NCBI GenBank assembly: GCA_025059595.1
Contig: JANXDI010000012.1
Span: forward strand, 1-32,000
Reading direction: 5' to 3'
From: Candidatus Calditenuaceae archaeon
Lineage (GTDB): Archaea; Thermoproteota; Nitrososphaeria_A; Caldarchaeales; Calditenuaceae
Length of the DNA: 32,000 nucleotides
The notes beneath the pieces are model-generated. The model searched no databases, was not told the DNA's origin, and saw nothing but the letters and a program-made list of their open reading frames with translations. Position 1 is the stretch's first letter; each line of letters begins with the position of its first letter. A program made the translations under genes and the position numbers. Below, one piece after another: positions 516 through 16,602 of the stretch.

Positions 516-1259
516 TTGGCGCGGACGTTGATTGAGGTGGCGGGGCTTTGGAAGAGTTTTAATGGTGAGCCCGCCGTCCGCGGCCTGAACCTAGCTGTTG
601 GTGAGGGGGAGATTCACGGATTGCTTGGGCTTAACGGCGCAGGGAAGACGACGACGATTAAGTGCGTGGTTGGGCTTCTGAGGCCGGACCGAGGTGAGAT
701 AAGGGTCGCGGGCCGCTCGGTCTTCACCGACTCCTCGTTCAAGGATTTTCTTGGGTATCTGCCGGAGAACCCCTCACTTCCTGAATACCTAACCGCCGAG
801 GAGTTTCTCGTCTTCAGCTCGAGACTGAAGGGTCTTAGGGATGGTGAGGTGGGGAGGCGTGTCTCCGAGGCGGTTGAGCTTTTCGGTCTTCGGAGATACC
901 TCGACAGGCTTATCTTCGAGCTCTCGAAGGGTGTGAGGCAGAGGATAGCTTTCGCCGCAGCGATAGTGAATACTCCGCAGATACTGATTCTCGATGAGCC
1001 GTTCAACGGTCTAGACCCAGAGGCACAGAGCGTCGCTAAGTTTCTCATGAGGGAGACGGCGGAGAGAGGTGGGGCGGTCCTCGTCAGCACGCACCTCCTC
1101 GACTCAATTGAGCGCGTCTGCGACTCCGCGACAATCATCCACACGGGGAGAGAGCTTGCGTCTGGGACGCTAAACGAGCTCAGGAGCCTGGCCGGGCTGT
1201 CGAGCTCGGCTCCGCTTGAAGAGGCTTTTCTCCGCATAGTCTCGAGGAGCAGGACTTGA
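516..1259 (+). CDS. ABC transporter ATP-binding protein
   Basis: Walker A GLNGAGKTT, ABC signature LSKGVRQR, Walker B ILILDEP, H-loop STHLL. TTG start preceded by GAGGGTTGGAGC. Confidence 0.9.
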   Translation: MARTLIEVAGLWKSFNGEPAVRGLNLAVGEGEIHGLLGLNGAGKTTTIKCVVGLLRPDRGEIRVAGRSVFTDSSFKDFLGYLPENPSLPEYLTAEEFLVFSSRLKGLRDGEVGRRVSEAVELFGLRRYLDRLIFELSKGVRQRIAFAAAIVNTPQILILDEPFNGLDPEAQSVAKFLMRETAERGGAVLVSTHLLDSIERVCDSATIIHTGRELASGTLNELRSLAGLSSSAPLEEAFLRIVSRSRT

Positions 1260-2849: not shown

Positions 2850-4820
2850 TTGTCCCAGAAATGCTTTAATAACCCAGCCGTTAATGTATTTTCTAAGTTG
2901 GTCCAAGAGGCGAAGGAAGAGAAGGAGGTAAAGGTAAAGGAGAAGAAGGAGAAAAAGAAGGAAAAGAAAGAGGAGATAATCAAGCAGTGGAGGGGGATAG
3001 ACGTTAAGCCGCTTAACCCCTCCTTCGAGATTCTCGACAGATACGTAATGAGGGAGAAATTCGCTGAGGTCATTATAGCCTCTCCTCCCGGCAGGATTGT
3101 TGAGCCGATATACTACGTTGTTGAGACCCCCCTCACGCCCAAAGAGGAGACCGCTCTGGAGAAAGTTAAAGACATTCTGACCAAGGAGCTCGACTTCCCC
3201 AAAATTGGCGAGGAAGAGGAGGTTAGGAAGATTATTCACGACACCACCTTGAGGGTTATCAAGAAGTATAAGCGGGCGGTGGGAATGCCTTCTCTTTCAG
3301 ACGAGGTCGTTGAGAAGTTCTTGTACTATATTGATAGGGACCTCATGGGTTTCGGCCCGCTCAACGTGATTATGGAAGACTTCAAGGTCGAGGACATTTC
3401 ATGCGACGGGCTCAACATCCCGATTTACGTCTGGCACAGGGACTTCGAAAGCATGCCCACCAACGTCTCCTTCACGGATAGGGAGGCTCTCGACGACTTC
3501 ATAATTCATCTAGCCCATAAGGCGGGTAAGCACGTCTCATCCGCCTTCCCCATAGTGGACGCCATGATTTACGGGAAGCACAGGCTCGCCGCGACTTTCA
3601 GGGAGGAGATTTCTCCGCGCGGGAGCACCTTCACGATTAGGAAATTCAGGGAGAAGCCATTCAGCGTAACCGAGCTCATACTCAGCAACGTCCTGAATAG
3701 CGAGATGGGCGCGTATTTCTGGCTCCTACTCGAGAACAAGGCCAGCCTCATGCTAATAGGAGCGACGGGCAGCGGAAAGACAACCCTCCTAAACGCACTC
3801 ACGACCTTCATCAAGCCTAGGATGAAAATAGTCACATGCGAGGAGACCGCTGAGATTAACATTCCAAGGGACAACTGGGTCAGGTTTGTTACGAGAGAGA
3901 GCTACGGCCTCGGTGCGACGGAGAGGGGCGAGGTGGCCCTCTTCGACCTCGTTAAAACTAGCCTCAGGTATAGGCCAGACTATCTTCTAGTCGGTGAGGT
4001 TAGGGGCGAGGAGGCCTTCGTCCTCTTCCAAGCCATAGCGACCGGACACGGAGGCCTGACCACCGTCCACGCCGAAGACGTTGAGAGCGCGATTAAGAGG
4101 CTTATGAGCCCGCCGATGAATATTCCCGAGACACACATCTCCCTTCTCGATGCAATGGCGCTGATTCAGAGGGTCCAGCTCCGCGGCAAGACCCAGCTCT
4201 ACGGCAGGCGCGTCAGGTTCATCTGGGAGGTTGAGGACGCCCACAAATACAGGAAGATAGCCGAGTGGGACCCTGTCACGGACACGTTCAGGGTAAACTT
4301 CGCTAATAGCCTCCAAATAGAGAACATCTCGCTGATGAATGGTATTAGTAAGGAGGACCTCATGCTTGAGCTCTGGAGGCGGAAGGAGCTCCTCGAGTGG
4401 ATGCGAGAGAACAAGATAACAGACAACGACAAAGTCGCGAGCATTATCCTCTCCTATTACGCAGACCCTGAAAAGCTGATTGCCGAGGCGGGAATCACTG
4501 TTAGGAGGCCGCCTATTCCCGCTGTGGCAACGCCTAGGAGGCTGGAGACCGTCGCTCTGCCCACCGCGCTACCGTCCGTGGTCTCGAGCTCTCCGCAGCC
4601 AGCTGCTCCGACCGTTAGTGCGGAGGAGCTGGAGAGGGAGGTTAAGCCGATAGCCGACTACATCGTTGAGGCTATTCTCAAGAGGAGTGGCCCGACTCCG
4701 TATTGGCAGGTCTTCGTAAAGACGCCCTATCCGAGGGACGTGATTATCAGGGCTATGCGCTACCTGAAGGACAAGAGACGCATCGATATTATCGGCGGCG
4801 TTGTAGAGCTTATGGAGTAG
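2850..4820 (+). CDS. type IV filament assembly ATPase (FlaI/PilB/VirB11 superfamily) with extra N- and C-terminal regions
   Basis: Walker A GATGSGKTT, Walker B/Asp box DYLLVGEVRGEEA, His box GHGGLTTVHAED. The N-terminal domain pattern EPIYYVVETPLTPKEE is typical of archaeal FlaI-like ATPases. The exact start is uncertain (TTG 2850 or TTG 2898), but it must lie upstream of ATG 3047 because the conserved N-domain begins before it. Confidence 0.9.
   Translation: MSQKCFNNPAVNVFSKLVQEAKEEKEVKVKEKKEKKKEKKEEIIKQWRGIDVKPLNPSFEILDRYVMREKFAEVIIASPPGRIVEPIYYVVETPLTPKEETALEKVKDILTKELDFPKIGEEEEVRKIIHDTTLRVIKKYKRAVGMPSLSDEVVEKFLYYIDRDLMGFGPLNVIMEDFKVEDISCDGLNIPIYVWHRDFESMPTNVSFTDREALDDFIIHLAHKAGKHVSSAFPIVDAMIYGKHRLAATFREEISPRGSTFTIRKFREKPFSVTELILSNVLNSEMGAYFWLLLENKASLMLIGATGSGKTTLLNALTTFIKPRMKIVTCEETAEINIPRDNWVRFVTRESYGLGATERGEVALFDLVKTSLRYRPDYLLVGEVRGEEAFVLFQAIATGHGGLTTVHAEDVESAIKRLMSPPMNIPETHISLLDAMALIQRVQLRGKTQLYGRRVRFIWEVEDAHKYRKIAEWDPVTDTFRVNFANSLQIENISLMNGISKEDLMLELWRRKELLEWMRENKITDNDKVASIILSYYADPEKLIAEAGITVRRPPIPAVATPRRLETVALPTALPSVVSSSPQPAAPTVSAEELEREVKPIADYIVEAILKRSGPTPYWQVFVKTPYPRDVIIRAMRYLKDKRRIDIIGGVVELME
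2912..2976 (+). repeat. polypurine tract encoding a Lys/Glu low-complexity segment
   Basis: 65 nt contain only two pyrimidines (t2929, t2935), and 2936-2976 is uninterrupted purine. It encodes KEEKEVKVKEKKEKKKEKKEE in the N-terminus of the ATPase ORF. Confidence 0.8.
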
Positions 4821-6594
4821 TCTGGAGCTCGAACAATCCTACTGTTATATTTCCGGATAACCATATGGCTATGAGGGAGATTACTGACATTATTATGGCG
4901 TGTTTGAATCCTCCGGCTATCGTTGAGCCTGAGATTTTACCGGCGACTATTCCGCTTATGACTGCGATTATTATGACTGGTGGGAGGAAAAAGTGTATGA
5001 ACTCAGCGGACGATATGCTTAGGCGGGCAAGCTTCAGCAGGCCCTTCATGAAGGAGACAAGTATGACTACGACGACTATGAGGAGGACCGCGGTGAGGTA
5101 GGGAATAATCATCAGCGGCTTCAGCGTTGCGCGCTTCTGCCTCTCAATCTCCTCCAAGTCCTCCGAGAACGTGGCGAGAACTTCGAATGTCTCCGGCGCT
5201 CCGCCGCCGACATCTATCGCGTCTATCAGTATGAAGACTCCCGCCCTCTCGAGCCAGCCGTAGGTCCGCTTGGCAAAGTCCTCGTAAATCTTTCTGAGGG
5301 GCATTCCCCAGCCTATCTGCCTAGCCATGATTTTGAGGTGTTTGCTGAAGGCTCCGTAGGGGTTTCGCGAGAGGTCGATGATGCACCTCTCGGGGCTTAG
5401 GCCGGTCTTCCTGACCTCCGTGATGTCTCTGAGGAAGAGTGTGAGACCGTGGACGACTGAGAAGTTCTCGGAGCCATATCTCTGGTATGCGATTGCGGCT
5501 GGTGTGAAGAGGATTATGGAGAAGAGGATGAGGGCTATGGAGGACTCGTAGCCCATCTCGATTCCCATGGCCTTCCTTATCTCGACTATGATGCCGGATG
5601 TTATGTCGAAGGGCGGGATGTATTGCAACTCTGTGAGGAAGAAGGGCACCGCGAAGAGAGCGAGGAAAGCGAAGGCCGCGGGCATGGTGAAGTATAGGAC
5701 CCTCATCGGCCTCGGGTCTGTTATTGGGTATTTCGGCTGGCTTATGTCTGCGAGGTAGAGGAAGAGCACCGCGAGGAGGGGTAGGAAGAGGTAGGCTATC
5801 ATGGCGAACTGCTCGGAGGGCATTATGAGGAACTCGGTGGGGAGGGCTCTTGAGACTATGTAGATTGTGAATAGGACGAGTGAGAGCATCATCGTTATCG
5901 CCGCGTAACCCTCCATCAGCATGCCCATCCTCTCACCCACGATACGCATCTTACCCATCCGCGAGGTGAAAATCTGCTCCGTCTTCCTGATGAGGAAGTG
6001 GACCACGTCTCCGCCGCTCCGAATCGTCGAGGCGTAACCCATGAGGAGGTCTCTATACTCCTTGCTGGGTAGGCCTTTGGCCATCTTCTCGATTGCCGAG
6101 ACAGGGTCGAGTCCGCCGACCTTGACGTTCAGGTCTGCGAGCTTGGCGGCCTTGGCTATGTTGGGCATGAGCTGGCTCTGGGCGAGCCGTGAAAGGCTTT
6201 TGTATGGTGGTATTCCGCCTGTGGACATGACTGCGAGGTAGGCGGCGGCGTAGGGGACCTCGCTCTCGAAGAGCGTCGCGGCGGAGGAGGCAGCCATGTA
6301 TGGCCAAGCAAGCCCCAAGCCGAGGGCGATCAGGGGGATACTCCCAATGAGCCCAAGCCCAATTAGGCTGCCTGTGAAAAGATAAACAACAACGGCCAAG
6401 GGGATGGAGATTATCGCAGTTACCACCACCACAGCAGCCACAATTGAAGTGAAGACCTCCGGGTAGATGCGTTTCCCAGCGCTCTCGAGCTTGGATGGTA
6501 TTCCCGGCGCTATTCGGAGAAGAAGCGTCCCAAGACCCCTAAAGTTCGAGTATGAGAAGCTGGTGAAAGACTCGCTGAACCCCATGACTAACAA
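4810..6594 (-). CDS. FlaJ/TadC-type polytopic membrane platform protein
   Basis: 594 aa with two soluble T2SS-F-like segments (e.g. GYASTIRSGGDVVHFL and IMARQIGWGMPLRKIYEDF...IDAIDVGGGAPETFE) separated by clusters of TM helices. It sits next to the ATPase. ATG at 6594 lies about 20 nt downstream of a TATA box. Confidence 0.85.
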   Translation of the reverse strand: MLVMGFSESFTSFSYSNFRGLGTLLLRIAPGIPSKLESAGKRIYPEVFTSIVAAVVVVTAIISIPLAVVVYLFTGSLIGLGLIGSIPLIALGLGLAWPYMAASSAATLFESEVPYAAAYLAVMSTGGIPPYKSLSRLAQSQLMPNIAKAAKLADLNVKVGGLDPVSAIEKMAKGLPSKEYRDLLMGYASTIRSGGDVVHFLIRKTEQIFTSRMGKMRIVGERMGMLMEGYAAITMMLSLVLFTIYIVSRALPTEFLIMPSEQFAMIAYLFLPLLAVLFLYLADISQPKYPITDPRPMRVLYFTMPAAFAFLALFAVPFFLTELQYIPPFDITSGIIVEIRKAMGIEMGYESSIALILFSIILFTPAAIAYQRYGSENFSVVHGLTLFLRDITEVRKTGLSPERCIIDLSRNPYGAFSKHLKIMARQIGWGMPLRKIYEDFAKRTYGWLERAGVFILIDAIDVGGGAPETFEVLATFSEDLEEIERQKRATLKPLMIIPYLTAVLLIVVVVILVSFMKGLLKLARLSISSAEFIHFFLPPVIIIAVISGIVAGKISGSTIAGGFKHAIIMSVISLIAIWLSGNITVGLFELQTTP

Positions 6595-6609
6595 TCTATC
6601 TACGACGGA

Positions 6610-6619
6610 TTATATATAA
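6610..6619 (-). promoter_or_regulatory. TATA box for the platform gene (near-leaderless)
   Basis: TTATATATAA lies 16-25 nt upstream of the minus-strand ATG at 6594. Confidence 0.5.
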
Positions 6620-6673
6620 GAGTTGTCTATCTTTAAGCCGAGCCACCGCTTCTACTGGAATTTTCAGTCTAGC

Positions 6674-6684
6674 AAAATATATAT
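6674..6684 (+). promoter_or_regulatory. TATA box for the small pilin gene (near-leaderless)
   Basis: AAAATATATAT is centred about 29 nt upstream of ATG 6709. Confidence 0.5.
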
Positions 6685-6708
6685 CAGGGAGACCAGAATC
6701 ATTCGAGT

Positions 6709-7110
6709 ATGATGAATAGAAGAAAAGCAGGTATCAGCCCGGTCGTAGCAACGGTGATACTCGTCGCAGTAGCAATCGTAATAGCCATCGCGGTAGCCTT
6801 CTGGGCCTCAGGACTCGTAGGAGTCTTCACAAGATTCGAAAAAATAGAGATACAAACAGCATACTGGGACGGAGAAAGAGTCGTAGTGATTGCGAAGAAC
6901 ACCGGGTCAAGCCCAGCAGTAGTAGACATGATATTAGTGAACGGATTGCCCTGCGTAACGGCAACAAACATAGCACTTCCGGTGGGAGGCTCAGCCATCA
7001 TCAATGTCAGTGTAGGAGCCACCTGTGTTCAACAAGGAGGCATTACTAACGAGATTGCACTCCACACAACTAGCGGAAAGACCTACCCAGTAGCGGTCCT
7101 CGTACCGTAA
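6709..7110 (+). CDS. archaeal type IV pilin-like protein (class III signal peptide), candidate major pilin
   Basis: N-terminus MMNRRKAG|ISPVVATVILVAVAIVIAIAVAF has a short basic leader, Gly at -1, and a hydrophobic helix, as in the archaeal pilin N-terminal domain. This is followed by a small beta-rich domain (VVVIAKNTGSSPAVVDMILVNG). 133 aa with two Cys. Confidence 0.85.
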   Translation: MMNRRKAGISPVVATVILVAVAIVIAIAVAFWASGLVGVFTRFEKIEIQTAYWDGERVVVIAKNTGSSPAVVDMILVNGLPCVTATNIALPVGGSAIINVSVGATCVQQGGITNEIALHTTSGKTYPVAVLVP

Positions 7111-7123
7111 ATTCGCAGCCCAA

Positions 7124-7139
7124 TATTTTTATTGTTTTA
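7124..7139 (+). terminator. oligo-T archaeal terminator candidate after the pilin gene
   Basis: TATTTTTATTGTTTT begins 14 nt after the TAA stop at 7108-7110. Confidence 0.4.
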
Positions 7140-7214
7140 CCCCCTGCAATTGTTATCTAGCCCCCTCTCTAAACCTTTAAGGCTTATAGACTACGAATCT
7201 TTCTTAGTCTACCC

Positions 7215-8117
7215 TTGAGCCGCGCCGGGCATAGGCCTCTCCGCACGCTGGTGGTAATCTGCGCATATAATGAGGAGAATAGCATCGCCACGCCAGTCGC
7301 TCAGGCCATCCGAGAAGGCTTCGAGGTTCTGGTCGTTGACGACGGAAGCGAGGATAGGACGTCGGAAATCGCTAAGGCCCATGGTGCCGAGGTAATCAGA
7401 AACGACGTGAGGGGTGGAAAGGCTTTAGCGCTGAGTAGAGCGATATCTTACGCGAAGGAACATGAATACGAAGCGATAATTGAGGTAGGTGCAGACGCGG
7501 TGCCGGTAGAGGGAGGCATAAGCAGGCTATACAGATACCTCACCCTTCCAAGCGTAGGAGGTGTCTCGGCGCGCCAAATACCACTGGGGAGTGGGCCGGC
7601 ATACAGGATTGATGAGCTCATGTGGAGCATTCTAGCGGAGGGGAAGTCGCTTCAGCAGAGGCTGGGCAGGCAGGTCCACCTCGGCGCGGTGATGTATGGT
7701 GCCAAACTCAGGCACATTAGGGCAGTTGCAGGGGTAATCAACGATGACGAGTTCGTCGGCATACTCGTGAGCAGAGACGGTGGGAAAAACTACTTCGCGG
7801 AGGACTGCGTAGCCTATTTCGACGCATCCTCATCAATAAAGCACCTCTTCAATAGAAGGAAGCGCATGATATTGGGGCACCTCCAGCTCGGAAAATCAAC
7901 CGCGCCCAGCATGCAGCCAAGCATACTCACAGCCGCAACACTACTAGCAATAGTCAAGAAAACGTCCAGACTGATGTGGCTTGTACCTGCCCTAATAATC
8001 GAAATAGCGGCGCGCTTGTCGGCATTTAGAGATTCGCGAAAAGTCGATAAACTGGCGGAATACGTTAGGTGGCACACGCATGGAATGAAAAAACCGATAC
8101 AGCGCCATGTAACATAA
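7215..8117 (+). CDS. family 2 glycosyltransferase (polyprenyl-phosphate sugar synthase-like)
   Basis: N-terminal GT-A signature VVICAYNEENSI...VLVVDDGSEDRTSEIA and a C-terminal hydrophobic segment (LTAATLLAIV...WLVPALIIEIAA), as in DPM/ArnC/GtrB-type enzymes. TTG start. Confidence 0.85.
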   Translation: MSRAGHRPLRTLVVICAYNEENSIATPVAQAIREGFEVLVVDDGSEDRTSEIAKAHGAEVIRNDVRGGKALALSRAISYAKEHEYEAIIEVGADAVPVEGGISRLYRYLTLPSVGGVSARQIPLGSGPAYRIDELMWSILAEGKSLQQRLGRQVHLGAVMYGAKLRHIRAVAGVINDDEFVGILVSRDGGKNYFAEDCVAYFDASSSIKHLFNRRKRMILGHLQLGKSTAPSMQPSILTAATLLAIVKKTSRLMWLVPALIIEIAARLSAFRDSRKVDKLAEYVRWHTHGMKKPIQRHVT

Positions 8118-8169
8118 AGGCTAGCTAGGAGCCGTTATACGATGAGATTGAATTTTGTAATCGACGCCT

Positions 8170-8586
8170 TCAGATTCTTCCAATCAGTATGGCGCCCACT
8201 ATTATGAGGGCCACACCTATCCACTGCTCTGGGGTGGGTTTCTCGCCTAATGCTAAGATTCCGACCAGAACTATCGAGAGGATTGATAGTGAGAGGAAGA
8301 ATCTTCCCAGCATTACTCCGAGGTCGCTGTAAACCCAGTAGCTTAGGACAGCGACTGTGAAGCCCGTAAGCATGGCGAGTATGAACCACTTATTGAAGAA
8401 GAGCGTGAAGAGAAATGTCAGGGAGACCTCAGGCGCGCCGACCTCCCTCAACGCGAATCCCCAGAAGAGCGTGTTCAGCCCCACAAAGACGGCGACGAGA
8501 AGCCCAACAACCCAGATTGTAGAGTCCACTCCTCCCCCTCCTCGGAGCATTGTTCGCGGAGATTGCGGATATAACTCTTCAAACAC
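8170..8586 (-). CDS. small single-EamA-domain membrane protein (ArnE/F- or SMR-like candidate flippase)
   Basis: 138 aa with 4 predicted TM helices. The C-terminal GEKPTPEQWIGVALIIVGAILI is the typical EamA domain end. The start may instead be the internal Met (MLRGGGG, 8550). Confidence 0.6.
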   Translation of the reverse strand: MFEELYPQSPRTMLRGGGGVDSTIWVVGLLVAVFVGLNTLFWGFALREVGAPEVSLTFLFTLFFNKWFILAMLTGFTVAVLSYWVYSDLGVMLGRFFLSLSILSIVLVGILALGEKPTPEQWIGVALIIVGAILIGRI

Positions 8587-8657
8587 TCTGAGGGAGCGAG
8601 CATATCAAGGGATTAATAGGGCGGCTGCCGGCTCTTGGCCGGTGCGCTGACAGGGGC

Positions 8658-10007
8658 GTGAAGAGAGGCGGAGACGGCTGGAGGACGGTGGCCACGCTTG
8701 CCCTAATAGTCTCCTTAGGGTTCGCGATACGCTTCACCATCTGGATATACCCAATGTATGGTGTTCAGAGCCTACTAATCTTCGACACGGGTTCTTACCC
8801 CATCTTCGGGCTGGCCTACATTCACGCGATAACCACGATGAACTTCACAGCACTCACCAGCATAAACCCGGGCGTCCCACCCATCGGCATGCTCCTCACA
8901 GGCCTATCAACGCAGACGTTTGGAGAGCTTATCGGCCCGATCCAAGCCAGCCTCATCCCACCTGTCACGGCCTCAGCCCTCACAGCAATCCCAGCCTACC
9001 TCATCGCCAAGAGATATGCGGGGAGGGCGGCCCTTCTGGCCCCGGCCCTCGTGTCGTTCGACCCATTCCTAATCCAATTCTCCGCAACGTACCTCGACTC
9101 CATCGGTACGCTTTTCGCAGCGGCGTCGGCCGCCTACGTCATCGATTCGAGTAGCAGAAGGTCCTTCAGTCTCGCCATCTTCTTCGCCACCCTCGCAGCT
9201 CTGACAAAACTCTCGTTCACCATCTTCACGGCGATATTCGCGCTCCTCCTACTCCTCAACAAGGAGCTCACTGCGAGGAGGGCTATCCTCTACCTGCTTA
9301 TTCCGCCAGCCTCGCTGGTCCTCAGCCCCGGTGTCTGGAGACCCTCCAACATCGGGGCCATAGTCGAGGGGCATCTCGCCTTTAACAACGTGCCTCTTGC
9401 GCCTCTCCTCAGCCCATTCGTCATAGACGTCCCACTATCCCTACCTTGGCACATCCTCTCATACCTCGGAATGGGTCAAGTCTCATGGAACACTCTGCCG
9501 CACGTAACGCCGCTGGCCGTCCTCCTGATGGTGGCCTACCAAGCCGCGAGAAATGAGTTGCGGATACCTCGTGGCGCCGCGATTCCAGCCTCGGCGATAG
9601 TCTTGGCAATCTTCCTGCTGCCGAGGGGCTACTGGACCTACAGCTGGGCCGGGGGCGCCGTTCAGGGGGTTCTGGCGCGCCAGTTCTATCCCTACTACTT
9701 CTACCCTGTAGGCCCCTTCCTAGCAGTCTTAGCGGCGGCAGTCTTCGCATCCGACGCAGGCCACAGACCCGCGGGCAGACTCGCGACCTACCCCGCACTG
9801 CTGGCCGCCCTCGTCTCGCCGCTAGCCGTGGTGATGAGCTTCGGCCTCCCCTACTGGGACTTCATCTTCAACCTAATCTACAGCGCCTCGCAGGGAAGCT
9901 GGATGGCGGAGGGGATAGCGGCCGCGGGCATCACCACGGCCATTCTCGCCGCGGTCTTAGCGGCAGCCGAGCTGATACACAGACGGGCACAACGAATAGG
10001 GGGTTAG
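8658..10007 (+). CDS. polytopic membrane protein, putative GT-C fold glycosyltransferase (ArnT/PMT-like)
   Basis: 449 aa with about 11-12 TM helices. The first extracytoplasmic loop carries an acidic/aromatic motif (LLIFDTGSYPIF) in the position of the GT-C DE/DxD loop. It is adjacent to the GT2 and EamA genes. Family assignment is inferential. Confidence 0.5.
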   Translation: MKRGGDGWRTVATLALIVSLGFAIRFTIWIYPMYGVQSLLIFDTGSYPIFGLAYIHAITTMNFTALTSINPGVPPIGMLLTGLSTQTFGELIGPIQASLIPPVTASALTAIPAYLIAKRYAGRAALLAPALVSFDPFLIQFSATYLDSIGTLFAAASAAYVIDSSSRRSFSLAIFFATLAALTKLSFTIFTAIFALLLLLNKELTARRAILYLLIPPASLVLSPGVWRPSNIGAIVEGHLAFNNVPLAPLLSPFVIDVPLSLPWHILSYLGMGQVSWNTLPHVTPLAVLLMVAYQAARNELRIPRGAAIPASAIVLAIFLLPRGYWTYSWAGGAVQGVLARQFYPYYFYPVGPFLAVLAAAVFASDAGHRPAGRLATYPALLAALVSPLAVVMSFGLPYWDFIFNLIYSASQGSWMAEGIAAAGITTAILAAVLAAAELIHRRAQRIGG

Positions 10008-10023
10008 GCGGCTTAAGCACGCA

Positions 10024-11328
10024 TTAAGGAGCCTGCGAGGCAAGAGGTGCTCTGCAGGCCGTCATGACGTTTCCTCCCTCAACCCACCACTTACAGACGT
10101 AGACCACCCCTAATATCTCAGGAGAGCGGAAGTCAAACCGCCCGTAGTTGTCGCGAGTTATGAGGCCCTGCGCCCCATCCAGTCTAATCCTGTAGATGAA
10201 GAAGCCTCCATAATCCTTCTTACTCGTGCCAGGGTCCGTGACTTCTATCGTGAAGAAGCCCAAGTAAGAGGTCCCTGGCGAGAGAGTCGGGATGCTCTGG
10301 CTCAGAGGCGAGGCATTCAAAGTAATATTATTAAACGATACAAACTCTAAAACAACATTAACGTTTCTCAGAGGCTCCGTTATGTTCCCAAGCGTTACAA
10401 TGTAGGGTATCGTAACATTGACCTCCAAGTCGCTCCCATTCATCAGGACCATCATGTTCCTCTGAAGCGTCATGACTTGGAGCGGAATCGGCCTCGGCGG
10501 GTCAAGCCTCACACCGACATCAACATGGACCACTACGTGGCTGCTGGCTACGACTCTTACCGGGTTGGGTGATACGTTGGCGCAGGAGCCGCCCGTCAAA
10601 TACGGGCACTGGAGGGCCCGCACCTCGTAGACGCCTGGCGCGATGTTGAACGCGAATACGTCGCTCAGGTCTTCGACCCTCGACACGAGCCTGCTCATTA
10701 CCGCCTTTTCCCTACAACCTGTCGCGAACTCCTCGCCCCTTACGGAGACGCATCCCCTTGTCATGTTGACGTTCACGTCGTCCTTCACGACAGACACCTC
10801 AACCTCGTATCTGTGACCTAGGCTTACGTTGCTTAACTGAACCATCAGGAGGTAGGGTAGCTTGTTCGGCCCGATTGGCTCCCCTGACACAAAGCTATTC
10901 CCCCTAAGGGTTGGGGCCCTCAAGACAACCACCTCGTTAGGCTCCAGATAGTAGTTTAGAGGCTTCATCAGAATGGCGCCGGGAGGAAGCTTATATTGCT
11001 CGTCGACAACCTGGAGGCCGAACCTGTTACTCTCGATATAGAGCGTAGGCACTGTAATCTCTATCGGCCCCCTATTCATCATCGTCAAGTATAGAGCCCT
11101 CTTTTGGAATGGGTGGAGCTCGGGGGGCTGCATCGTCAGAGTTATCTCCAGCTCCTCGTTAAGCTTCTCCACCTCGAACTGAAGCCTCCTCGAGACCTCA
11201 TCCATGAAGAGGGTCTGGAGCTGCTGAATATAGAGCCACATCGGAATCATGACGGTGAAAAATATCATCACCGCAACCGCCGTCCCAACCACCGCGGAGA
11301 TACCTGCCGACCTACTGCGACGCCCCAT
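10024..11328 (-). CDS. large pilin-like surface protein (class III signal peptide), 434 aa
   Basis: MGRRSRSAG|ISAVVGTAVAVMIFFTVMIPMW prepilin-like N-terminus, then the module LYLTMMNRGPIEITVPTLYI that resembles the first beta domain of the small pilin. 8 N-x-S/T sequons and 6 Cys in three close pairs. ATG lies 1 nt after the upstream stop. Confidence 0.7.
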   Translation of the reverse strand: MGRRSRSAGISAVVGTAVAVMIFFTVMIPMWLYIQQLQTLFMDEVSRRLQFEVEKLNEELEITLTMQPPELHPFQKRALYLTMMNRGPIEITVPTLYIESNRFGLQVVDEQYKLPPGAILMKPLNYYLEPNEVVVLRAPTLRGNSFVSGEPIGPNKLPYLLMVQLSNVSLGHRYEVEVSVVKDDVNVNMTRGCVSVRGEEFATGCREKAVMSRLVSRVEDLSDVFAFNIAPGVYEVRALQCPYLTGGSCANVSPNPVRVVASSHVVVHVDVGVRLDPPRPIPLQVMTLQRNMMVLMNGSDLEVNVTIPYIVTLGNITEPLRNVNVVLEFVSFNNITLNASPLSQSIPTLSPGTSYLGFFTIEVTDPGTSKKDYGGFFIYRIRLDGAQGLITRDNYGRFDFRSPEILGVVYVCKWWVEGGNVMTACRAPLASQAP

Positions 11329-11329
11329 C

Positions 11330-11857
11330 TCAGTTAGCCACCCCCGTCCTCGTAACCGTTATCGTGATAACCAACGTTGTGGTAGTGGTTGAGGTGACTA
11401 CCGTCGTCGTCGGGACAGTTGTGGTTCGGGCGTCAGACGTAGTTGAGACGATTGTCGTGACGGTGGTTGTGGGAGTGGTCACGGTGGTAGTAACGTAGAT
11501 GAAGGCCGTGGTCCGTGTGGTGGAAATAGTATAAACTGTCACCCATTGAGTAATCGTGGTCGTTGAAGTGATGCGCGTAGTGGAAAATGTAGTTGATGCG
11601 CTGGTTACTGTCCGTGTTCCACTTGTAAGAGTCGTGGTTGTGAACCTCGTTGTATAGCTAGTGACAGTTCTCGTGCCCTCGGTTAAGGTCGTCGTCGAGG
11701 ACGTTGTTACCCAGCTCGTGGTCGTGGTGGTTGTTGTCGTGGTGGTCGTGACAACCCTGAAGGTCTGGGCCAACCCAGAGAGGCTCAACGTAAGAAGCAC
11801 GATAACAGCTAGCGCAAGAGCTAGTGCCTTCCCGCCGCGCCTTACTCCCTTATCCAT
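11330..11857 (-). CDS. secreted Thr-rich low-complexity protein, 175 aa
   Basis: ATG start with a Sec-like signal peptide (KALALALAVIVLLTLSLSGLA|QT), followed by about 140 aa dominated by Thr/Val/Ser. This includes an 11-Thr run and an internal repeat TLTEGTRTVTSYTTRFTTT / TLTSGTRTVTSASTTFSTT. It overlaps the upstream gene by 16 nt. Confidence 0.65.
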   Translation of the reverse strand: MDKGVRRGGKALALALAVIVLLTLSLSGLAQTFRVVTTTTTTTTTTTSWVTTSSTTTLTEGTRTVTSYTTRFTTTTLTSGTRTVTSASTTFSTTRITSTTTITQWVTVYTISTTRTTAFIYVTTTVTTPTTTVTTIVSTTSDARTTTVPTTTVVTSTTTTTLVITITVTRTGVAN

Positions 11858-12426
11858 GAATTAACCCACCTCCTAATTAGAGGATACACAACTAGCGGCC
11901 CTAGGGAAAGATAGAGCATTACCTGCCAGCCGAGCGGCCACCAATGAGGCACGAATATAAACGCTTCACCTGAGCCCTGACCACTACCACCCCCCACAGT
12001 CGTCGTGCTCGTCGTCCTGCTCGTTACAGTCGACGTGACATACACCGTAGAAGTGAACGTGCTTGTCAATGTCCTCGTGGTGGTGAAAGTCGTGGAGACC
12101 GATGTGACTGTGTTGGTTATAGTCGGGCTAAAAGACGTGCGAACCACAGTCACTACACTGGTTATCGTAGAAGTTCGAGTAGCGGTGAAGCTCGTCGTGG
12201 TGCGTATCACGATATGTGTTCCGGTTGATACGACCACGGTGGTTACCCTAGTCACTGTCTCTGGAACTGTTCGCGTCGTTGAGGGGGTTACTGTTGTGGA
12301 CGTAGATACGATGGTCGAGACGGTTGTAGTGGTTGTCCGCGGAATGGTCGTCGTAGTGACTCTTGTAGTGGTCATAGTCACGGTCTCCGTGACCGTTGAC
12401 GTTGTTGTGGTGGTGATTATAGGGGT
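11333..12426 (-). repeat. extreme Thr-codon (ACN) low-complexity coding region spanning two adjacent genes
   Basis: The plus strand is strongly G/T-rich (GTN/NGT). The minus strand encodes T/V/S/R-rich sequence in residues 381-524 of the 574-aa protein (11995-12426) and residues 36-175 of the 175-aa protein (11333-11752). Confidence 0.85.
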
Positions 12427-13566
12427 GACATCCATGGTCCTCACAACAACTCTGCCGATGTCGAAGACATATACGGGCGTGTCGAGCACAACGCTGTACT
12501 GGTTGATAATCAGGGAAAGGCCGCCCATCAATATCTGGACCCTGAGAATGCCCCGAGCGATCAGCACGTTGTTGCAGTCGTATATCTCGACAACAAGCTC
12601 GTAGTCACCGTCCTCCCAGAAGCCAATCGAGAGGATCATCTCATCGATTCTCATATTATTGAGATTAAGCCGCATTTTGGAGTAGTCGATGTAGTTTCCG
12701 AAGCTGCTCGGGAATCCCCAGCTTTGGGGGAGTATTGTGACGTCTGGCATGAGGGATTGAATCTCGACTACTAGAGGTGTCCGGAGACCGCCCCTATCGA
12801 GCTGGACGTAAACCTCTTGTGGTAGGTCGCCGGTTACTCTCGCAGTCCCCCTAGCAACCACTCCATTCGCATCCGTGACTGTTACTTGGAAGTCGTAGGA
12901 GGCCATTCTTCTGCTGGCGTTGAGCAGCCTGACTTTGATGAAGTCTGTTGTGACTCCGTAGATGTTCTCCTCCTTGGGGTCCACCAGCTCTATCAGGAGC
13001 CAGTGGTTTGTTGGGAGTTCGCAACCACTTGCTAGACCATAGCGCGGCTCAGAGGCCTCGAAGGTCGCTACCTTGAAGAGAAGCGTCTCGCTGTCCGGCT
13101 TGGAGAGGGCCGGGTTGTCAGGGTCGTAGAGCTGCTCCGGAATGTAGTGGACTTGAACGAGTATTCTGTCGCCCGGAGAGCAGACGCTACCGGGGCATCT
13201 GAAGGCTAAGGCTGTTCTCTCATTTACCGGGATTCTGGCGTGGTCGTCTATCCCGGAATCATAGACCACGGTGCCATTCTTTATGGTGAGTATTCTGAAG
13301 ACGATGACCGGCTCCCTGCCCGTGTTTCTTAGAAGCATGACGCCCCTGTCGGCTCCGCCAAAGATTTTATCAGGATAGTAGACATATTCTGCGCCTATGT
13401 TAGACCTGAGGATTAGCGCCTGGTCGCCCAGCTGTCTAACCTCCTCCTGACGCCAGACTCCCGCATAGCTACTTAGAAAGACCCACAGGGCTATACCGGC
13501 GGACAAGACCGCCGCAAGTATCAACACAGTCGAAACGATCTCGCTGTATCCTCTTTTCCGCCTCAT
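11842..13566 (-). CDS. large pilin-like surface protein with Thr-rich stalk and C-terminal hydrophobic anchor, 574 aa
   Basis: MRRKRG|YSEIVSTVLILAAVLSAGIALW class III-like signal. A body of about 340 aa is colinear with the upstream 386-aa protein. This is followed by a 144-aa Thr/Val/Ser/Arg region, a GGGSGQGSGE linker and a hydrophobic tail WWPLGWQVMLYLSLGPLVVYPLIRRW. Confidence 0.75.
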   Translation of the reverse strand: MRRKRGYSEIVSTVLILAAVLSAGIALWVFLSSYAGVWRQEEVRQLGDQALILRSNIGAEYVYYPDKIFGGADRGVMLLRNTGREPVIVFRILTIKNGTVVYDSGIDDHARIPVNERTALAFRCPGSVCSPGDRILVQVHYIPEQLYDPDNPALSKPDSETLLFKVATFEASEPRYGLASGCELPTNHWLLIELVDPKEENIYGVTTDFIKVRLLNASRRMASYDFQVTVTDANGVVARGTARVTGDLPQEVYVQLDRGGLRTPLVVEIQSLMPDVTILPQSWGFPSSFGNYIDYSKMRLNLNNMRIDEMILSIGFWEDGDYELVVEIYDCNNVLIARGILRVQILMGGLSLIINQYSVVLDTPVYVFDIGRVVVRTMDVTPIITTTTTSTVTETVTMTTTRVTTTTIPRTTTTTVSTIVSTSTTVTPSTTRTVPETVTRVTTVVVSTGTHIVIRTTTSFTATRTSTITSVVTVVRTSFSPTITNTVTSVSTTFTTTRTLTSTFTSTVYVTSTVTSRTTSTTTVGGGSGQGSGEAFIFVPHWWPLGWQVMLYLSLGPLVVYPLIRRWVNSWIRE

Positions 13567-13567
13567 G

Positions 13568-14698
13568 TTAATACTCCTCCACCAGCACGTCTATGCGCGC
13601 TATATCCATCAATAGGATTGGGGGTACGTCAACGAACACTGAGTCTGTGAAGATGCCCCTCGGTACGTTCGTAATTACGAACCTAGATGTGATTAGCTCG
13701 CCGTTACAGTCGTACAGGTTTACGGTTATCCTGTATCTTCCACCCACTAGGTCGTTGACGCCCAGCTCAACCTCAACCACGTCAACCATCTTCTCAGCAT
13801 TTGACCATAGAGTCACTCCCGAGGCATGAGCCTTCCAAGGTATTCCTCCTAGCCTCCACTCACGCTGAAGCACGTTAAACCCGGCAGCCAGAACATGGAT
13901 GCGGAGGGGGGTCTGAAATCCTCCGAAACTGCCTGTGAAACTATACATCTCGTTGCCGATGGTAGGCACGTTGCGTGTAGCGAATCCGTAGGCGCCGGAC
14001 GCGTTGATGACTTGTATATCAACTGAGACTGTGGCACTTGAGGATGCGTAGGGAAATCTGGCATGGATTCTGTTGTTAGGTTGCGACGGAATCTTTCCCG
14101 TGTCACTATATGTGACTGGGTCTATCACATCCACCGTCATCCAGTTGGGGGGTAAGGGGCATCTAGCCGCTACTCCGCCTGGCGGATAGACAAAGACCGT
14201 CTCAACATATCGCATCTCATCCGCAGACAGGACTGGATTCTCCTCGTTAAACAGGGCGGAGGCGACATACCAGACCCTCAGCCTCAGAGTCTCCAAAGGA
14301 AGGCATGTGGCGCAGAGGGGTATAACGCCTCCGCTTAGTGTGGCATTTCCGCTGGGGAGTAGCTCGGCCAGCTCGGTGAAGCCGGTCGACGGATACGAGG
14401 CTTTTAGTGCTCCTCCCGGGGTCAATATCTCTATTCTAGTGACTATGACTGGCACATCCGCTATGTTTCGGAGAATGATGCTTCTCTCCCTGCTTGTGAA
14501 GTTAACAGCCTCGAAGGAGAGCTGGGCCGATGTCTTGACTAGGAGTATAGCCCTGTTAGCCTCGTTGGTGGAGGATTGGAGCGTGGCGCCAAGCCACCCG
14601 GAGGCCACGCCGAGGATGAATATTCCCATGCCTACCGTTAGGGCGGCCAAGATAACAGCCCCTATAGTAGTGTCTCCATTACTCCTCCCCCTCGTCAT
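13568..14698 (-). CDS. large pilin-like surface protein, paralog of the 574-aa protein
   Basis: With ATG 14698 the N-terminus is MTRGRSNG|DTTIGAVILAALTVGMGIFILG, a short basic leader plus hydrophobic helix. The ORF extends to GTG 14728. Colinear motifs shared with the downstream paralog include RYRITVNLYDCNGELITSRFVI vs DYELVVEIYDCNNVLIARGILRV and CPLPPNWMTVDVIDP vs CELPTNHWLLIELVDP. Confidence 0.75.
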   Translation of the reverse strand: MTRGRSNGDTTIGAVILAALTVGMGIFILGVASGWLGATLQSSTNEANRAILLVKTSAQLSFEAVNFTSRERSIILRNIADVPVIVTRIEILTPGGALKASYPSTGFTELAELLPSGNATLSGGVIPLCATCLPLETLRLRVWYVASALFNEENPVLSADEMRYVETVFVYPPGGVAARCPLPPNWMTVDVIDPVTYSDTGKIPSQPNNRIHARFPYASSSATVSVDIQVINASGAYGFATRNVPTIGNEMYSFTGSFGGFQTPLRIHVLAAGFNVLQREWRLGGIPWKAHASGVTLWSNAEKMVDVVEVELGVNDLVGGRYRITVNLYDCNGELITSRFVITNVPRGIFTDSVFVDVPPILLMDIARIDVLVEEY

Positions 14699-14753
14699 AC
14701 GCCGTCGACGGCCGCCCAGTATAACCACCTTCTAAAGCCTATGAACCTAACAG

Positions 14754-14763
14754 CTATATAACT
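14754..14763 (-). promoter_or_regulatory. TATA box for the pilin-like operon
   Basis: CTATATAACT (AGTTATATAG on the minus strand) lies about 26-35 nt upstream of GTG 14728, within an AT-rich divergent intergenic region. Confidence 0.45.
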
Positions 14764-14812
14764 ATTTTATTGATTTTAAACCTGTTAACGTGTTGGCTAT
14801 TGATAATCGCAT

Positions 14813-14827
14813 TTACCGACCCGGTAA
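14813..14827. promoter_or_regulatory. perfect inverted repeat TTACCG-N3-CGGTAA, candidate operator
   Basis: Read directly: ttaccg acc cggtaa. It lies between the two divergent TATA-like elements. Confidence 0.25.
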
Positions 14828-14900
14828 CATTTTCGCACACCTGGTTAGGTTAATTATAACTATTGGCCATAGCTGTTCGGTTCATTAGAAAGCTAAAGAT

Positions 14901-14912
14901 TCTTATATCATT
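14901..14912 (+). promoter_or_regulatory. TATA box candidate for the membrane/zinc-ribbon gene
   Basis: TCTTATATCATT lies about 25 nt upstream of in-frame GTG 14932. The stretch 14863-14930 is AT-rich and unlikely to be coding. Confidence 0.35.
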
Positions 14913-14931
14913 AAAAGACCTTCATCTAATA

Positions 14932-16602
14932 GTGTGTAGTGGTGTGACGCGCCAAGTATCATCCCTCAATAGGATGCTCGGGTTCATGGGCTTATCGCTT
15001 ATGTTGTCGTTCGCTTCTTGGATTGTCGGTGGCGAGTTTTTCAGGATTGTGATAAGCTCAGTCCTGCCTTTCGAGGAGCCTTTAAGAGCTTATCCCTCAT
15101 ACGCCTTCACAGGCCTGATACTCGGGGCGATGAACGCCCTCATCCTATACAAGTTAGTCAGTGGTTCGAAAGGGATTCTGGCTTTTATGGCTTTGGGGGC
15201 TGTCGCGGGCTGGGGAGGCGCCTTTGCTCTGACGATTTTTGCCAGCATATTTGACGTCTCTGTTGTATTGGGCTGGGCTTTAGGGCTGGCTACCTTTATC
15301 CTCATTATGCTTGGTCTGGTGAGGCTTTTGGCGATTGAGGCTATGAGGCCCCAGCTTCAGCGGGAGAGAGGTCAGATTGTTCAACTGCCTCCACAGACAA
15401 AGCCTCAGCCCGCACCAGCGATAACTGCTCAAGAACCATCTGCCCAGCCACCGGCCCAGCAACCAGAGGAGGCTCCACCCACTCCGCCTCCAACCTCAGC
15501 AGCAACTCCTCAGCCCCCTCCCACCGCACTGGCCGAGGCTAAACCATCTCCGGCTGCTCCAGCCACTATTCCTCCCCTGACGACCATTATTCCACCCACC
15601 CCTCCGCCACCGTCAGAGCCTACTCAGAGTATCGATGAGCTCGAGGAGGTGCTTGTAGAGATTATAGCTGAGGAGGGAATTACGGAGCTTATTCCGCTTC
15701 CAAACAACACGTCGCCCGAGGGCGGCTCTTATCCTGAGATTGAGTCTAAGCTTGGAGTTGACACAACTACGCTCCTCAAGGTTGTGAAGAGGCTGATGGA
15801 TAAGAATTATGTCAGGCTTTCCGGGGTGGAGTTTAAGAAGGTTGCCTGCCCTCACTGCCAGAGTGCCCTAAACGTCCTTAATCTTAGCTGCAGGGCCTGC
15901 GGCTCGACCAACATCGGGAGGCAGAGGATTCTTCAGCACGAGGCCTGCGGTTATCTCGGGCCTGAAGACAGCTTCACCGTCGGCGGAAGAACCATTTGTC
16001 CGCGCTGTGGAAGCGGTGTGAAGATTCTGAGGGGCCCGCTCGAGGAGGAGCATGAACAGATACTCAAGGTCCACTCAAGCTTCTTCATTTGCTACAACTG
16101 CAACGAGGTCAGCCCAGACCCCCACATCTCCTTCAGGTGCCTTACCTGCGGACTAGACTATGACTTGAGCGGCTTCGAGTTCAAGACCTTCTACAGATAC
16201 GCAATCAACCCCGAAATGATAAGCGGGCTGCAGGAGCAGAAGAGGCCGATTAGGCTAATCGCTGAGGAGTTGAAGAGGCTTGGATTCGAGGTTCAGATTG
16301 GGGCCCGGATTACGGGGGCGTCGAAGGTCCGGCATAAGGTTGACCTTCTCTACAGCCGCCTCGGCCAGACTAGGGGGGCTGTCTTCCTGTTCAGCGATAG
16401 GGGGGGCATGAAGATTCACGATGTGATGAAGATTATTGTTATGAAGGCGGACACTAGAATAGACAGCGTCAAGATACTCTGCCTCGGACAGCTGGACAAC
16501 GATTCGAAGAGGCTGGCCGAGCTTTACAATATTTTGGTCATCGAGAATATAGCTTCGAAGGAGCTGGCGACTGACGTTATGCCGCGCATAGTCTCCGCGT
16601 AG
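14932..16602 (+). CDS. membrane-anchored protein with Pro-rich linker, winged-helix-like segment, three zinc ribbons and a C-terminal alpha/beta domain
   Basis: 4 N-terminal TM helices, then a linker of about 95 aa rich in Pro/Ala/Gln (PPQTKPQPAPA...PPTPPPPSEP). Next comes an HTH-like segment (SYPEIESKLGVDTTTLLKVVKRLMDKNYVRLSG), the Cys motifs CPHC..CRAC, HEAC..CPRC, CYNC..CLTC, and a C-terminal domain containing GASKVRHKVDLL. The ORF is open from TTG 14863; the likely start is GTG 14932 or ATG 14974. Confidence 0.7.
   Translation: MCSGVTRQVSSLNRMLGFMGLSLMLSFASWIVGGEFFRIVISSVLPFEEPLRAYPSYAFTGLILGAMNALILYKLVSGSKGILAFMALGAVAGWGGAFALTIFASIFDVSVVLGWALGLATFILIMLGLVRLLAIEAMRPQLQRERGQIVQLPPQTKPQPAPAITAQEPSAQPPAQQPEEAPPTPPPTSAATPQPPPTALAEAKPSPAAPATIPPLTTIIPPTPPPPSEPTQSIDELEEVLVEIIAEEGITELIPLPNNTSPEGGSYPEIESKLGVDTTTLLKVVKRLMDKNYVRLSGVEFKKVACPHCQSALNVLNLSCRACGSTNIGRQRILQHEACGYLGPEDSFTVGGRTICPRCGSGVKILRGPLEEEHEQILKVHSSFFICYNCNEVSPDPHISFRCLTCGLDYDLSGFEFKTFYRYAINPEMISGLQEQKRPIRLIAEELKRLGFEVQIGARITGASKVRHKVDLLYSRLGQTRGAVFLFSDRGGMKIHDVMKIIVMKADTRIDSVKILCLGQLDNDSKRLAELYNILVIENIASKELATDVMPRIVSA

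Follow-up and report, generated by a model that had tools for sequence, protein, structure and literature searches.

Analyses of a 32,000-nucleotide stretch of DNA from a Candidatus Calditenuaceae archaeon (contig JANXDI010000012.1; hereafter the window, meaning the whole stretch) indicated that the region 2850-16602 probably codes for an adhesive pilus of type IV that is specific to the Caldarchaeales (Aigarchaeota), a reading to which we assign a probability of about 0.6. Judged from its sequences, the locus represents a variant, particular to this lineage, of the thaumarchaeal-type pilus locus and is not an archaellum, a bindosome or a Ups system. A first-pass annotation had listed six components here, namely a pilus assembly ATPase, a platform protein, a small pilin, three glycosylation genes (a family 2 glycosyltransferase, GT2; a small EamA-like membrane protein; and a GT-C glycosyltransferase), an operon for three large pilin-like proteins (P386, P574 and P434) together with a threonine-rich (Thr-rich) protein, and a divergent membrane protein (TackOD1). 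The open reading frame (ORF) listing and the Pfam and NCBIfam scans located all six where they had been placed or close by, and the list omitted a conserved ATP-binding cassette (ABC) pair of the ABC-2 type (516-2779) that belongs to the same syntenic block.

Loci of relatives were fetched with the homologues of the ATPase and of the GT-C protein and were scored by tblastn and hidden Markov model (HMM) scans; they carry numbers with the prefix L. The closest relatives were metagenome-assembled genomes from hot springs labelled Nitrososphaerota or Thermoproteota, that is 'Archaeon HR02' (Calditenuaceae), Ca. Geocrenenecus and Ca. Wolframiiraptor, all three of which belong to the order Caldarchaeales, formerly Aigarchaeota. 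This check of synteny revealed that at least nine related genomes of the Caldarchaeales have kept the block. A block of 11-13 genes is kept in L004-L007 (ATPase 86-90% identical) and in L022 and L023 (GT-C 46-47% identical), and modules of it recur in L008, L010 and L012. The shared order is ABC ATPase, ABC permease, pilus ATPase, platform, pilin and GT-C, then the reversed genes for P434, the Thr-rich protein, P574 and P386, and finally TackOD1. Given this recurrence across relatives, the block is not a chance juxtaposition.

The more distant loci L010 (Geocrenenecus) and L012 carry pilin and platform genes on one strand and ATPase, P386, P574, Thr-rich and P434 genes on the other, where the operon follows downstream of the ATPase. 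The simpler gene order of L010-L012 is ancestral, and the convergent layout of the window arose from it by rearrangement. Among the Wolframiiraptor-type loci, L014 and L015 hold ATPase, platform and pilin only, with a P434-like fragment added at the cut end of L014, while L011 has a shorter P434-like gene and a small pilin resembling domain 1 of P386, without the operon of P386, P574, Thr-rich protein and P434. Genes for Arf/Ras-like GTPase and Roadblock/LC7 proteins lie between platform and ATPase in the Geocrenenecus-type loci (L010 2235-3747 and 6895-7263; L012 8075-9701 and 12714-13082) and are absent from the window; they resemble the MglA/MglB pair and by that analogy might form a possible polarity or regulation module. 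An extra pair of genes, also absent from the window, stands between GT-C and P434 in L005 (18012-19695) and likewise in L004, L006 and L007, and in these loci it encodes a small pilin of 165 amino acids (aa), similar in type to domain 1 of P386, together with a 403-aa paralogue resembling P434.

The ABC-2-type exporter pair (ATPase 516-1259, permease 1256-2779, plus strand) lies directly upstream of the pilus ATPase gene, in the same position and on the same strand, in L004-L009 and L023, among which its ATPase is 50-83% identical. The ATPase matched ABC_tran (E value 7e-29) and is DrrA/GldA-like according to the NCBIfam models (drrA), while the 507-aa permease has at least ten hydrophobic helices by hydropathy and no family match in Pfam. 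The pair may be part of the pilus system.

The pilus assembly ATPase (2850/2898-4820, plus strand, 640-656 aa) matched the Pfam families T2SSE (E 9e-33) and PilB3_C (27.8 bits). Among solved structures it comes closest to A. fulgidus GspE (2OAP, 328 bits, compared with 234 bits for S. acidocaldarius FlaI), and it is ~36-40% identical to its euryarchaeal relatives. The N-terminus is K/E-rich and of low complexity, and its orthologues (53-90% identical) can be aligned with it through to the final residue. The C-terminal ~95 codons (~4530-4817) encode a linker rich in Pro and then a conserved ~65-aa domain (containing PYWQVFVKTPYP and RAMRYLKDKRRIDIIGG), which is kept in all Caldarchaeales orthologues and is absent from the afGspE and FlaI structures; the C-terminal ~68 aa gave no match in Pfam. 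The non-archaellum ATPases of A. fulgidus all belong to the euryarchaeal Clade 2, and the pilus ATPase of C. subterraneum to Clade 4 (Makarova et al. 2016). The Wolframiiraptor ATPases (L014 5240-6615, L015 11086-12530) carry an in-frame insertion of ~460-480 aa at window residue ~382-403, which in L015 is an intein (Pfam Intein_splicing, E 2.7e-15).

The ATPase gene converges with that of the platform (4810-6594, minus strand, 594 aa), overlapping it by 11 nt. The platform is a FlaJ/TadC-type polytopic protein with eight hydrophobic helices by hydropathy that matched T2SSF in two stretches (E 1.2e-21) and is 56-94% identical in the relatives, where the pilin gene always adjoins it. The pilin (6709-7110, plus strand, 133 aa) has the N-terminus RKAGISPVVATVILV with a class III signal peptide, MMNRRKA/GISPVVATVILV (the slash marks the cleavage site), scored 22.3 bits with TIGR02537 (cut-off 20), and gave full-length phmmer matches to the solved archaeal adhesive pilins 8FJS (E 4e-5), 8TIB, 8FK7, 6NAV and 6W8X. 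On these matches, ATPase, platform and pilin make up a complete motor-platform-pilin set, in which the 133-aa protein is an adhesive pilin of the canonical archaeal kind and probably the major pilin from which the filament is built.

The NCBIfam equivalog models of the characterised systems, when applied to these proteins, all failed. For the archaellum, FlaI (365 bits, cut-off 550) and ArlJ (41-54, cut-offs 400-550) were below their cut-offs, and no accessory genes were found in the window, L005, L010, L012, L022 or L023. For the bindosome, BasE reached 235 bits (cut-off 1000) and BasF 71 (cut-off 1300), with no solute-binding domain and with an adjacent ABC system of the exporter type. The Ups pili were likewise rejected (UpsF 83 vs 400, UpsA 23 vs 130, UpsB 16 vs 70). 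Family scans of all 32 kb revealed neither archaellum accessory genes nor sugar- or solute-binding proteins. With scores this far below the cut-offs and the partner genes missing, the earlier view of the region, as encoding a type IV filament but neither an archaellum nor a bindosome, holds; the ATPase and platform fall outside the FlaI, BasE, BasF, UpsF and ArlJ cut-offs, and their neighbourhood was not found described in the literature searched.

The genes for P386 (13568-14698/14728), P574 (11842-13566), the Thr-rich protein (11330-11857) and P434 (10024-11328) form a minus-strand operon with 1-nt gaps or a 16-nt overlap. The N-termini of P386, P574 and P434 consist of a basic stretch, Gly/Ala and then at least 20 hydrophobic residues; they read RSNG/DTTIGAVILAAL in P386, with an acidic residue conserved at +1, RKRG/YSEIVSTVLIL in P574, with an acidic residue conserved at +3, and RSAG/ISAVVGTAVAV in P434. 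BLASTP showed P386 and P574 to be paralogues (25% identity, E 2e-16 over ~380 aa). Their family, searched with its own profile, has 44 representatives among 1.84 billion proteins and falls into 18 clusters at 90% identity, and none of its members carries a Pfam domain or is informatively named. Weaker matches of this profile, at positions 13-160, were canonical archaeal pilins of 150-175 aa (for example with the N-terminus AISPIISTAILLAITIAIGL), and these small pilins share the motif VWY-x4-LF-x3-NP. P574 itself scored 18.4 bits with TIGR02537, just below the cut-off of 20.

The AlphaFold2 (AF2) model of P386 (pLDDT 84) has a helix at residues 9-56 followed by three beta domains, a pilin domain and two beta-sandwiches. 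Domain 1 was matched by Foldseek to the P. calidifontis type IV pilin 8FK7_A (TMt 0.73, root-mean-square deviation 4.0 Å), while beyond it only generic Ig/FN3/macroglobulin matches were obtained. The P434 model (pLDDT 84) has a helix at 10-56 and about four beta-sandwich domains with generic Ig-like matches only (integrin legs, A2M, CupB6 tip adhesin); it makes up a separate family, whose 24 homologues are all hypothetical proteins. Alignment of P434 with the 133-aa pilin in hhalign was marginal (probability 53%, E 1.4e-4, N-terminal 67 columns). A distant paralogy of P434 with P386/P574 found no support (hhalign probability 2.6%), and the A1 profile gave no significant match to the 133-aa pilin (1.8%).

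The first-pass annotation had proposed that the oversized proteins are related to pilins. The AF2 helix and beta domains, the Foldseek match to 8FK7 and the HMM links to pilins of 150-175 aa agree with this and show P386, P574 and P434 to be pilin derivatives, each of which is predicted to begin with a class III-like N-terminus, to continue in a ~48-residue helix and to carry 3-4 Ig-like domains. The architecture of the arCOG02911-type large minor pilins, namely a class III signal followed by an all-beta Ig-like protein encoded beside ATPase, TadC and PilA, is matched by them. It could instead be argued that the three are ordinary N-terminally anchored (type II) surface or surface-layer (S-layer) proteins whose anchors merely resemble prepilins, since the residues at -2 are non-ideal in P434 and P386, P386 lacks a pilin-model match and the folds beyond its first domain are generic. 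We consider this very unlikely: the first domain of P386/P574 shares homology with small canonical pilins and overlays a solved pilin structure from archaea, a Gly is conserved before the helix with an acidic residue at +1 (P386) or +3 (P574), and the genes are strictly linked to ATPase and platform across the order. On the pilin-derivative reading, three multi-domain pilin families that have yet to be characterised and are confined to thermophilic Caldarchaeales become candidate minor pilins or tip adhesins. To our knowledge, the minor pilins and tip adhesins of archaea are essentially unstudied.

Residues ~382-523 of P574 form a stalk of ~140 aa that is ~47% Thr, and after it come a hydrophobic C-terminal segment and RRW. 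The same architecture was found in P0118, P0125-P0127, L010, L012 and L023; it is kept by every P574-type orthologue seen. A VPXXXP-CTERM archaeosortase signal (VPHWWP) was considered at the C-terminus of P574 and rejected, the orthologues keeping only the hydrophobic segment and RRW. The Thr-rich protein (175 aa, 43% Thr) has a Sec-like signal peptide (ending SGLA/Q) and gave no Pfam match; orthologues in the same position, 204-239 aa long, are found between the P574 and P434 genes of L010, L012, L022 and L023. It had been taken for a fourth prepilin candidate (KA/LALA by regular expression), and this we withdraw: export by the Sec route is likelier because the signal of the L023 orthologue is of the plain Sec type and ends VLA/Q. 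Tandem Repeats Finder detected only trivial short arrays in the Thr-rich coding DNA, which is of low complexity and is not made of tandem repeats. The gene was called by the Logan gene caller, while the NCBI annotation with which we compared the window (contig JAVQTJ010000003.1 of assembly GCA_033581375.1, part of which is identical to the window) has two opposite-strand ORFs of 63 and 44 aa in its place. The Logan calls and the positional orthologues support the 175-aa ORF as a genuine gene. The fusion of pilin domain, Thr-rich stalk and C-terminal anchor in P574, and the Thr-rich protein of the same operon, were not found described and appear new. Two long antisense ORFs, the Val-rich 12005-12604 (plus strand) inside P574, which is the reverse complement of Thr codons, and 14307-14735 (plus strand) inside P386, were rejected as artefacts; these and the other antisense ORFs within the genes are by-products of Thr codons and GC content and not genes.

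The conserved anchor and stalk of P574 also suit a bindosome-like or pseudopilus surface assembly, in which ATPase and platform would build only a short pilin stub, and this would place the Ig-domain proteins and the tethered P574 in the S-layer or envelope as a fixed complex. An operon with three large proteins of class III type is reminiscent of bindosome substrates, BasE and BasF were among the better NCBIfam matches, and Makarova's models include S-layer-like, C-terminally anchored proteins in pilus loci. Such an assembly is nevertheless distinctly unlikely here, as the BasE and BasF scores given above are far below their cut-offs, solute-binding domains and an importer are missing (the neighbouring ABC system being of the exporter type), and over its full length the 133-aa protein is homologous to pilins that assemble into long adhesive filaments.

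O-glycosylation has been known in archaea since 1976; it decorates S-layers and renders Sulfolobus-type pili extremely resistant. Analysis of the glycosylation genes of the window showed that the GT2 (7215-8117, plus strand), which has a hydrophobic C-terminus, matched Glycos_transf_2 (E 8.5e-18). Its NCBIfam matches to PpgS, AglJ and a dolichyl-phosphate hexose transferase were partial (E 1e-8 to 1e-10) and far below the cut-offs, and a match to the P. calidifontis membrane GT2 6YV7 was weak; it is a candidate polyprenyl/dolichyl-phosphate sugar synthase. The small EamA/ArnE-like membrane protein (8170-8586, minus strand, 126-138 aa) has four hydrophobic helices, scored 29.5 bits with EamA (cut-off 28.2) and weakly with ArnE (E 6e-4), and is ~70% identical in L004-L007; it is a putative flippase for a lipid-linked sugar. 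The GT-C protein (8658-10007, plus strand, 449 aa) has at least seven hydrophobic helices and a near-invariant Asp43 after the first transmembrane helix. PMT_2 (GT39/GT83-like) was matched by 9 of the 23 members of its family (best E 1.3e-12), and source names of the members are GT39 or ArnT-like. Neither a MIR domain nor a PMT (PF02366) match was found in it; it might function in the way of a GT39 protein O-mannosyltransferase (PMT) but is not a canonical member of that group (~700+ aa). These family-level matches indicate that it is a divergent PMT_2-type GT-C enzyme.

The GT-C gene adjoins the pilin gene in nine loci (the window, L004-L007, L022, L023, L012 and L008). The copies are divergent in L012 (201 bits, with a GT2 of its own upstream) and in L008 (102 bits), and in L023 the gene follows the pilin directly on the same strand with a gap of 38 nt. 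Where the flanks could be scored, the GT-C and Thr-rich ORFs were both present in six loci and both absent in two (L011 and L015). The loci L022 and L023 lack GT2 and EamA but are otherwise identical; the two genes are an addition in the genus-level clade of the window. In L005 (14986-16050), and also in L004, L006 and L007, a gene for an FkbM-family methyltransferase (E 7.7e-12) that the window does not have lies between GT2 and EamA, and its coming and going suggests variable sugar modification. A GtrA/DPMS-TM family protein (25436-26002, plus strand, E 2.9e-25), another candidate flippase for a lipid-linked sugar, is encoded ~9 kb away among unrelated neighbours.

A GT2, a four-helix membrane flippase and a GT-C enzyme form an established three-component layout for extracytoplasmic glycosylation (PMC11127046). 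Archaeal pili are O-glycosylated on Ser/Thr (PMC11178852), and Sulfolobus O-glycans have been reported as single mannose (PMC11607397), while up to late 2024 the archaeal O-glycosylation pathway and its transferase were still termed 'elusive' (PMC6098224, PMC8241124, PMC11607397). Ser/Thr-rich acceptors are typical PMT substrates. From the linkage of the GT-C gene to the pilin and Thr-rich genes we infer that the triad O-glycosylates the Thr tracts and perhaps the pilin, which agrees with the published O-glycosylation of archaeal pili. The three genes might also serve general envelope or lipid glycosylation in the manner of ArnT or Gtr and be mere neighbours of the pilus genes, the Thr tracts being bare or modified by other enzymes. 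PMT_2 does have ArnT-type lipid modifiers and some of the homologues are named 'ArnT-like'; the absence of GT2/EamA in L022/L023 and the variable FkbM are typical of variable glycan islands, and the window has the GtrA-family gene elsewhere. We regard this as unlikely, given that GT-C stays beside the pilin in nine loci through several rearrangements and at GT-C identities of 24-68%, that it tracks the presence of the Thr-rich operon, and that in L023 it follows the pilin so closely.

The TackOD1 protein (14863/14974-16602, plus strand, 532-579 aa) is separated from the P386 operon by a divergent, AT-rich intergenic region (14729-14973) in which TATA-like boxes can be read. It has about four transmembrane helices, a Pro-rich linker, the TackOD1 domain (PF18551; E 5.9e-23, 81.8 bits against a cut-off of 32; 12 Cys, a multi-CXXC Zn-ribbon) and then a C-terminal domain of ~130 aa, of which the last ~125 aa gave no Pfam match. 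The gene keeps its position in L022 and L023. TackOD1 corresponds to arCOG06883, a response-regulator output domain of unknown function that occurs within thaumarchaeal pilus loci (PMC5847659, PMC4858521). The protein had been annotated as a regulator and the glycosylation genes as dedicated; the genes and their linkage are borne out, and the two functions are suggested by conserved linkage.

Under the preferred reading of an adhesive pilus, the PilB/FlaI-family ATPase and the TadC/FlaJ platform would form the assembly motor, and a prepilin peptidase encoded elsewhere would trim the four pilin-type N-termini. P386, P574 and P434 would act as minor pilins in a priming or tip complex displaying Ig-like adhesin domains, a role proposed by analogy with the arCOG02911-type large minor pilins and with bacterial tip factors of the GspK/PilY type. 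The C-terminal anchor and Thr-rich stalk of P574 would keep this protein tethered to the membrane and so join filament and cell. On the cytoplasmic side GT2 would put a sugar on dolichyl phosphate, the EamA/ArnE-like protein would flip the lipid-linked sugar, and outside the cell the GT-C enzyme would transfer it to Ser/Thr of the P574 stalk, of the secreted Thr-rich protein and possibly of the pilin, building up a glycan coat that resembles mucin and is stable to heat. The TackOD1 membrane protein may link some signal to assembly or expression.

Several observations weigh against this reading. Family scans of the 32-kb window found no A24 prepilin peptidase, as the first-pass annotation had said. 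P386 had no match from the pilin sequence models of Pfam and NCBIfam, K/R is missing at -2 in P434 (RSAG/I) and in P386 (RSNG/D), and the C-terminal anchor of P574 is hard to square with extrusion into a filament. On the side of glycosylation, the similarity of GT2 to polyprenyl-phosphate sugar synthases covers its first ~70 residues only, the GT-C protein of the window is itself below every Pfam threshold, its family profile found no match among PDB sequences, and PMT_2 also includes lipid- and glycan-modifying enzymes such as ArnT. The GT2 and EamA genes, as said, are missing from L022 and L023, and the co-occurrence counts of GT-C and Thr-rich genes come from few, phylogenetically related genomes. 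As to the peptidase, that of the related C. subterraneum is encoded far from its pilus locus (Makarova et al. 2016, Table S4).

A bolder proposal joins two parts, that the GT-C protein, supplied by the neighbouring GT2 and ArnE-like flippase, is a dedicated protein O-glycosyltransferase for the P574 stalk, the secreted Thr-rich protein and perhaps the pilin, and the first identified enzyme of the archaeal pathway, and that P574 is a doubly anchored 'tethered pilin'; taken together we put them forward tentatively, as possible and on balance somewhat improbable. If true, P574 would physically tie a type IV filament to the cell through a pilin helix, a mucin-like stalk and a membrane anchor, and the pilin-linked PMT_2 GT-C with its co-inherited surface proteins of 43-47% Thr would be a concrete enzyme-substrate pair for archaeal O-glycosylation. 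For annotation, the genes of the locus are currently labelled hypothetical, and the Thr-rich gene was missed by the NCBI record.

The other ~15 kb of the window contain housekeeping genes. A right-handed beta-helix protein of 715 aa is encoded at 29360-31507 (plus strand; Beta_helix, E 1.7e-24) and is possibly a secreted surface protein or a polysaccharide-active enzyme.

No prior description of this Aigarchaeal locus was met in the literature searched, which held only generic mentions of 'type IV pilin' genes. The kind of pilus locus is already known, because the 2016 census has large minor pilins, anchored surface proteins and arCOG06883. Its thaumarchaeal/TACK loci (Makarova, Koonin & Albers 2016) have the same core of ATPase, TadC-like platform and PilA/Aap-like pilin, include large all-beta pilin-family proteins of 330-610 aa, and carry arCOG06883 divergent from or adjacent to the FlaI ATPase, as here; the census also lists the arCOG02911 large Ig-like minor pilins of 250-550 aa and C-terminally anchored surface proteins in pilus loci, and the word 'glycosyl' is absent from its main text (PMC4858521). 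The term 'non-canonical' in the first-pass annotation is therefore relative in view of the large pilin-family proteins and arCOG06883 listed by Makarova et al. (2016). Compared with these loci, the present one has the P386/P574 and P434 families, which are without a Pfam or NCBIfam model, a Thr-rich stalk and anchor with a secreted Thr-rich protein, a conserved PMT_2 GT-C, accompanied or not by GT2 and flippase, the ABC-2 pair and the extra C-terminal domain of the ATPase. The two pilin families, a GT-C in a pilus locus, the ABC-2 pair and the ATPase domain were likewise not found described and appear new.

The euryarchaeal Clade 2 PilA-based pili (H. volcanii PilB3/PilC3, A. fulgidus GspE) follow the same plan of ATPase, TadC, PilA major pilin and large Ig-like minor pilin (arCOG02911); afGspE is the nearest solved ATPase and PilB3_C is common to both, while the minor-pilin families differ and glycosylation genes are embedded only in the locus described here. 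The Aap, Ups and Bas systems of the Sulfolobales and the archaellum have a motor and platform of the same superfamily, and the 133-aa pilin aligns with the adhesive pilins of Sulfolobales and Pyrobaculum; Sulfolobus-type pili are heavily O-glycosylated. From these systems the locus is set apart by the failure of all their equivalog models, by the absence of FlaB/F/G/H/X and of sugar-binding proteins, and by its gene order. The glycosylation genes have the same module layout of GT2, four-helix transporter and GT-C as the three-component systems GtrA/GtrB/Gtr*, ArnC/ArnEF/ArnT and Citrobacter GT136, and as to the GT39 protein O-mannosyltransferases, PMT_2, the family of the GT-C enzyme here, takes its name from the Dol-P-Man protein mannosyltransferases. 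Compared with both groups, the present enzyme is archaeal, is encoded within a pilus locus, is without MIR and has 449 aa, the eukaryotic PMTs having >700 aa.

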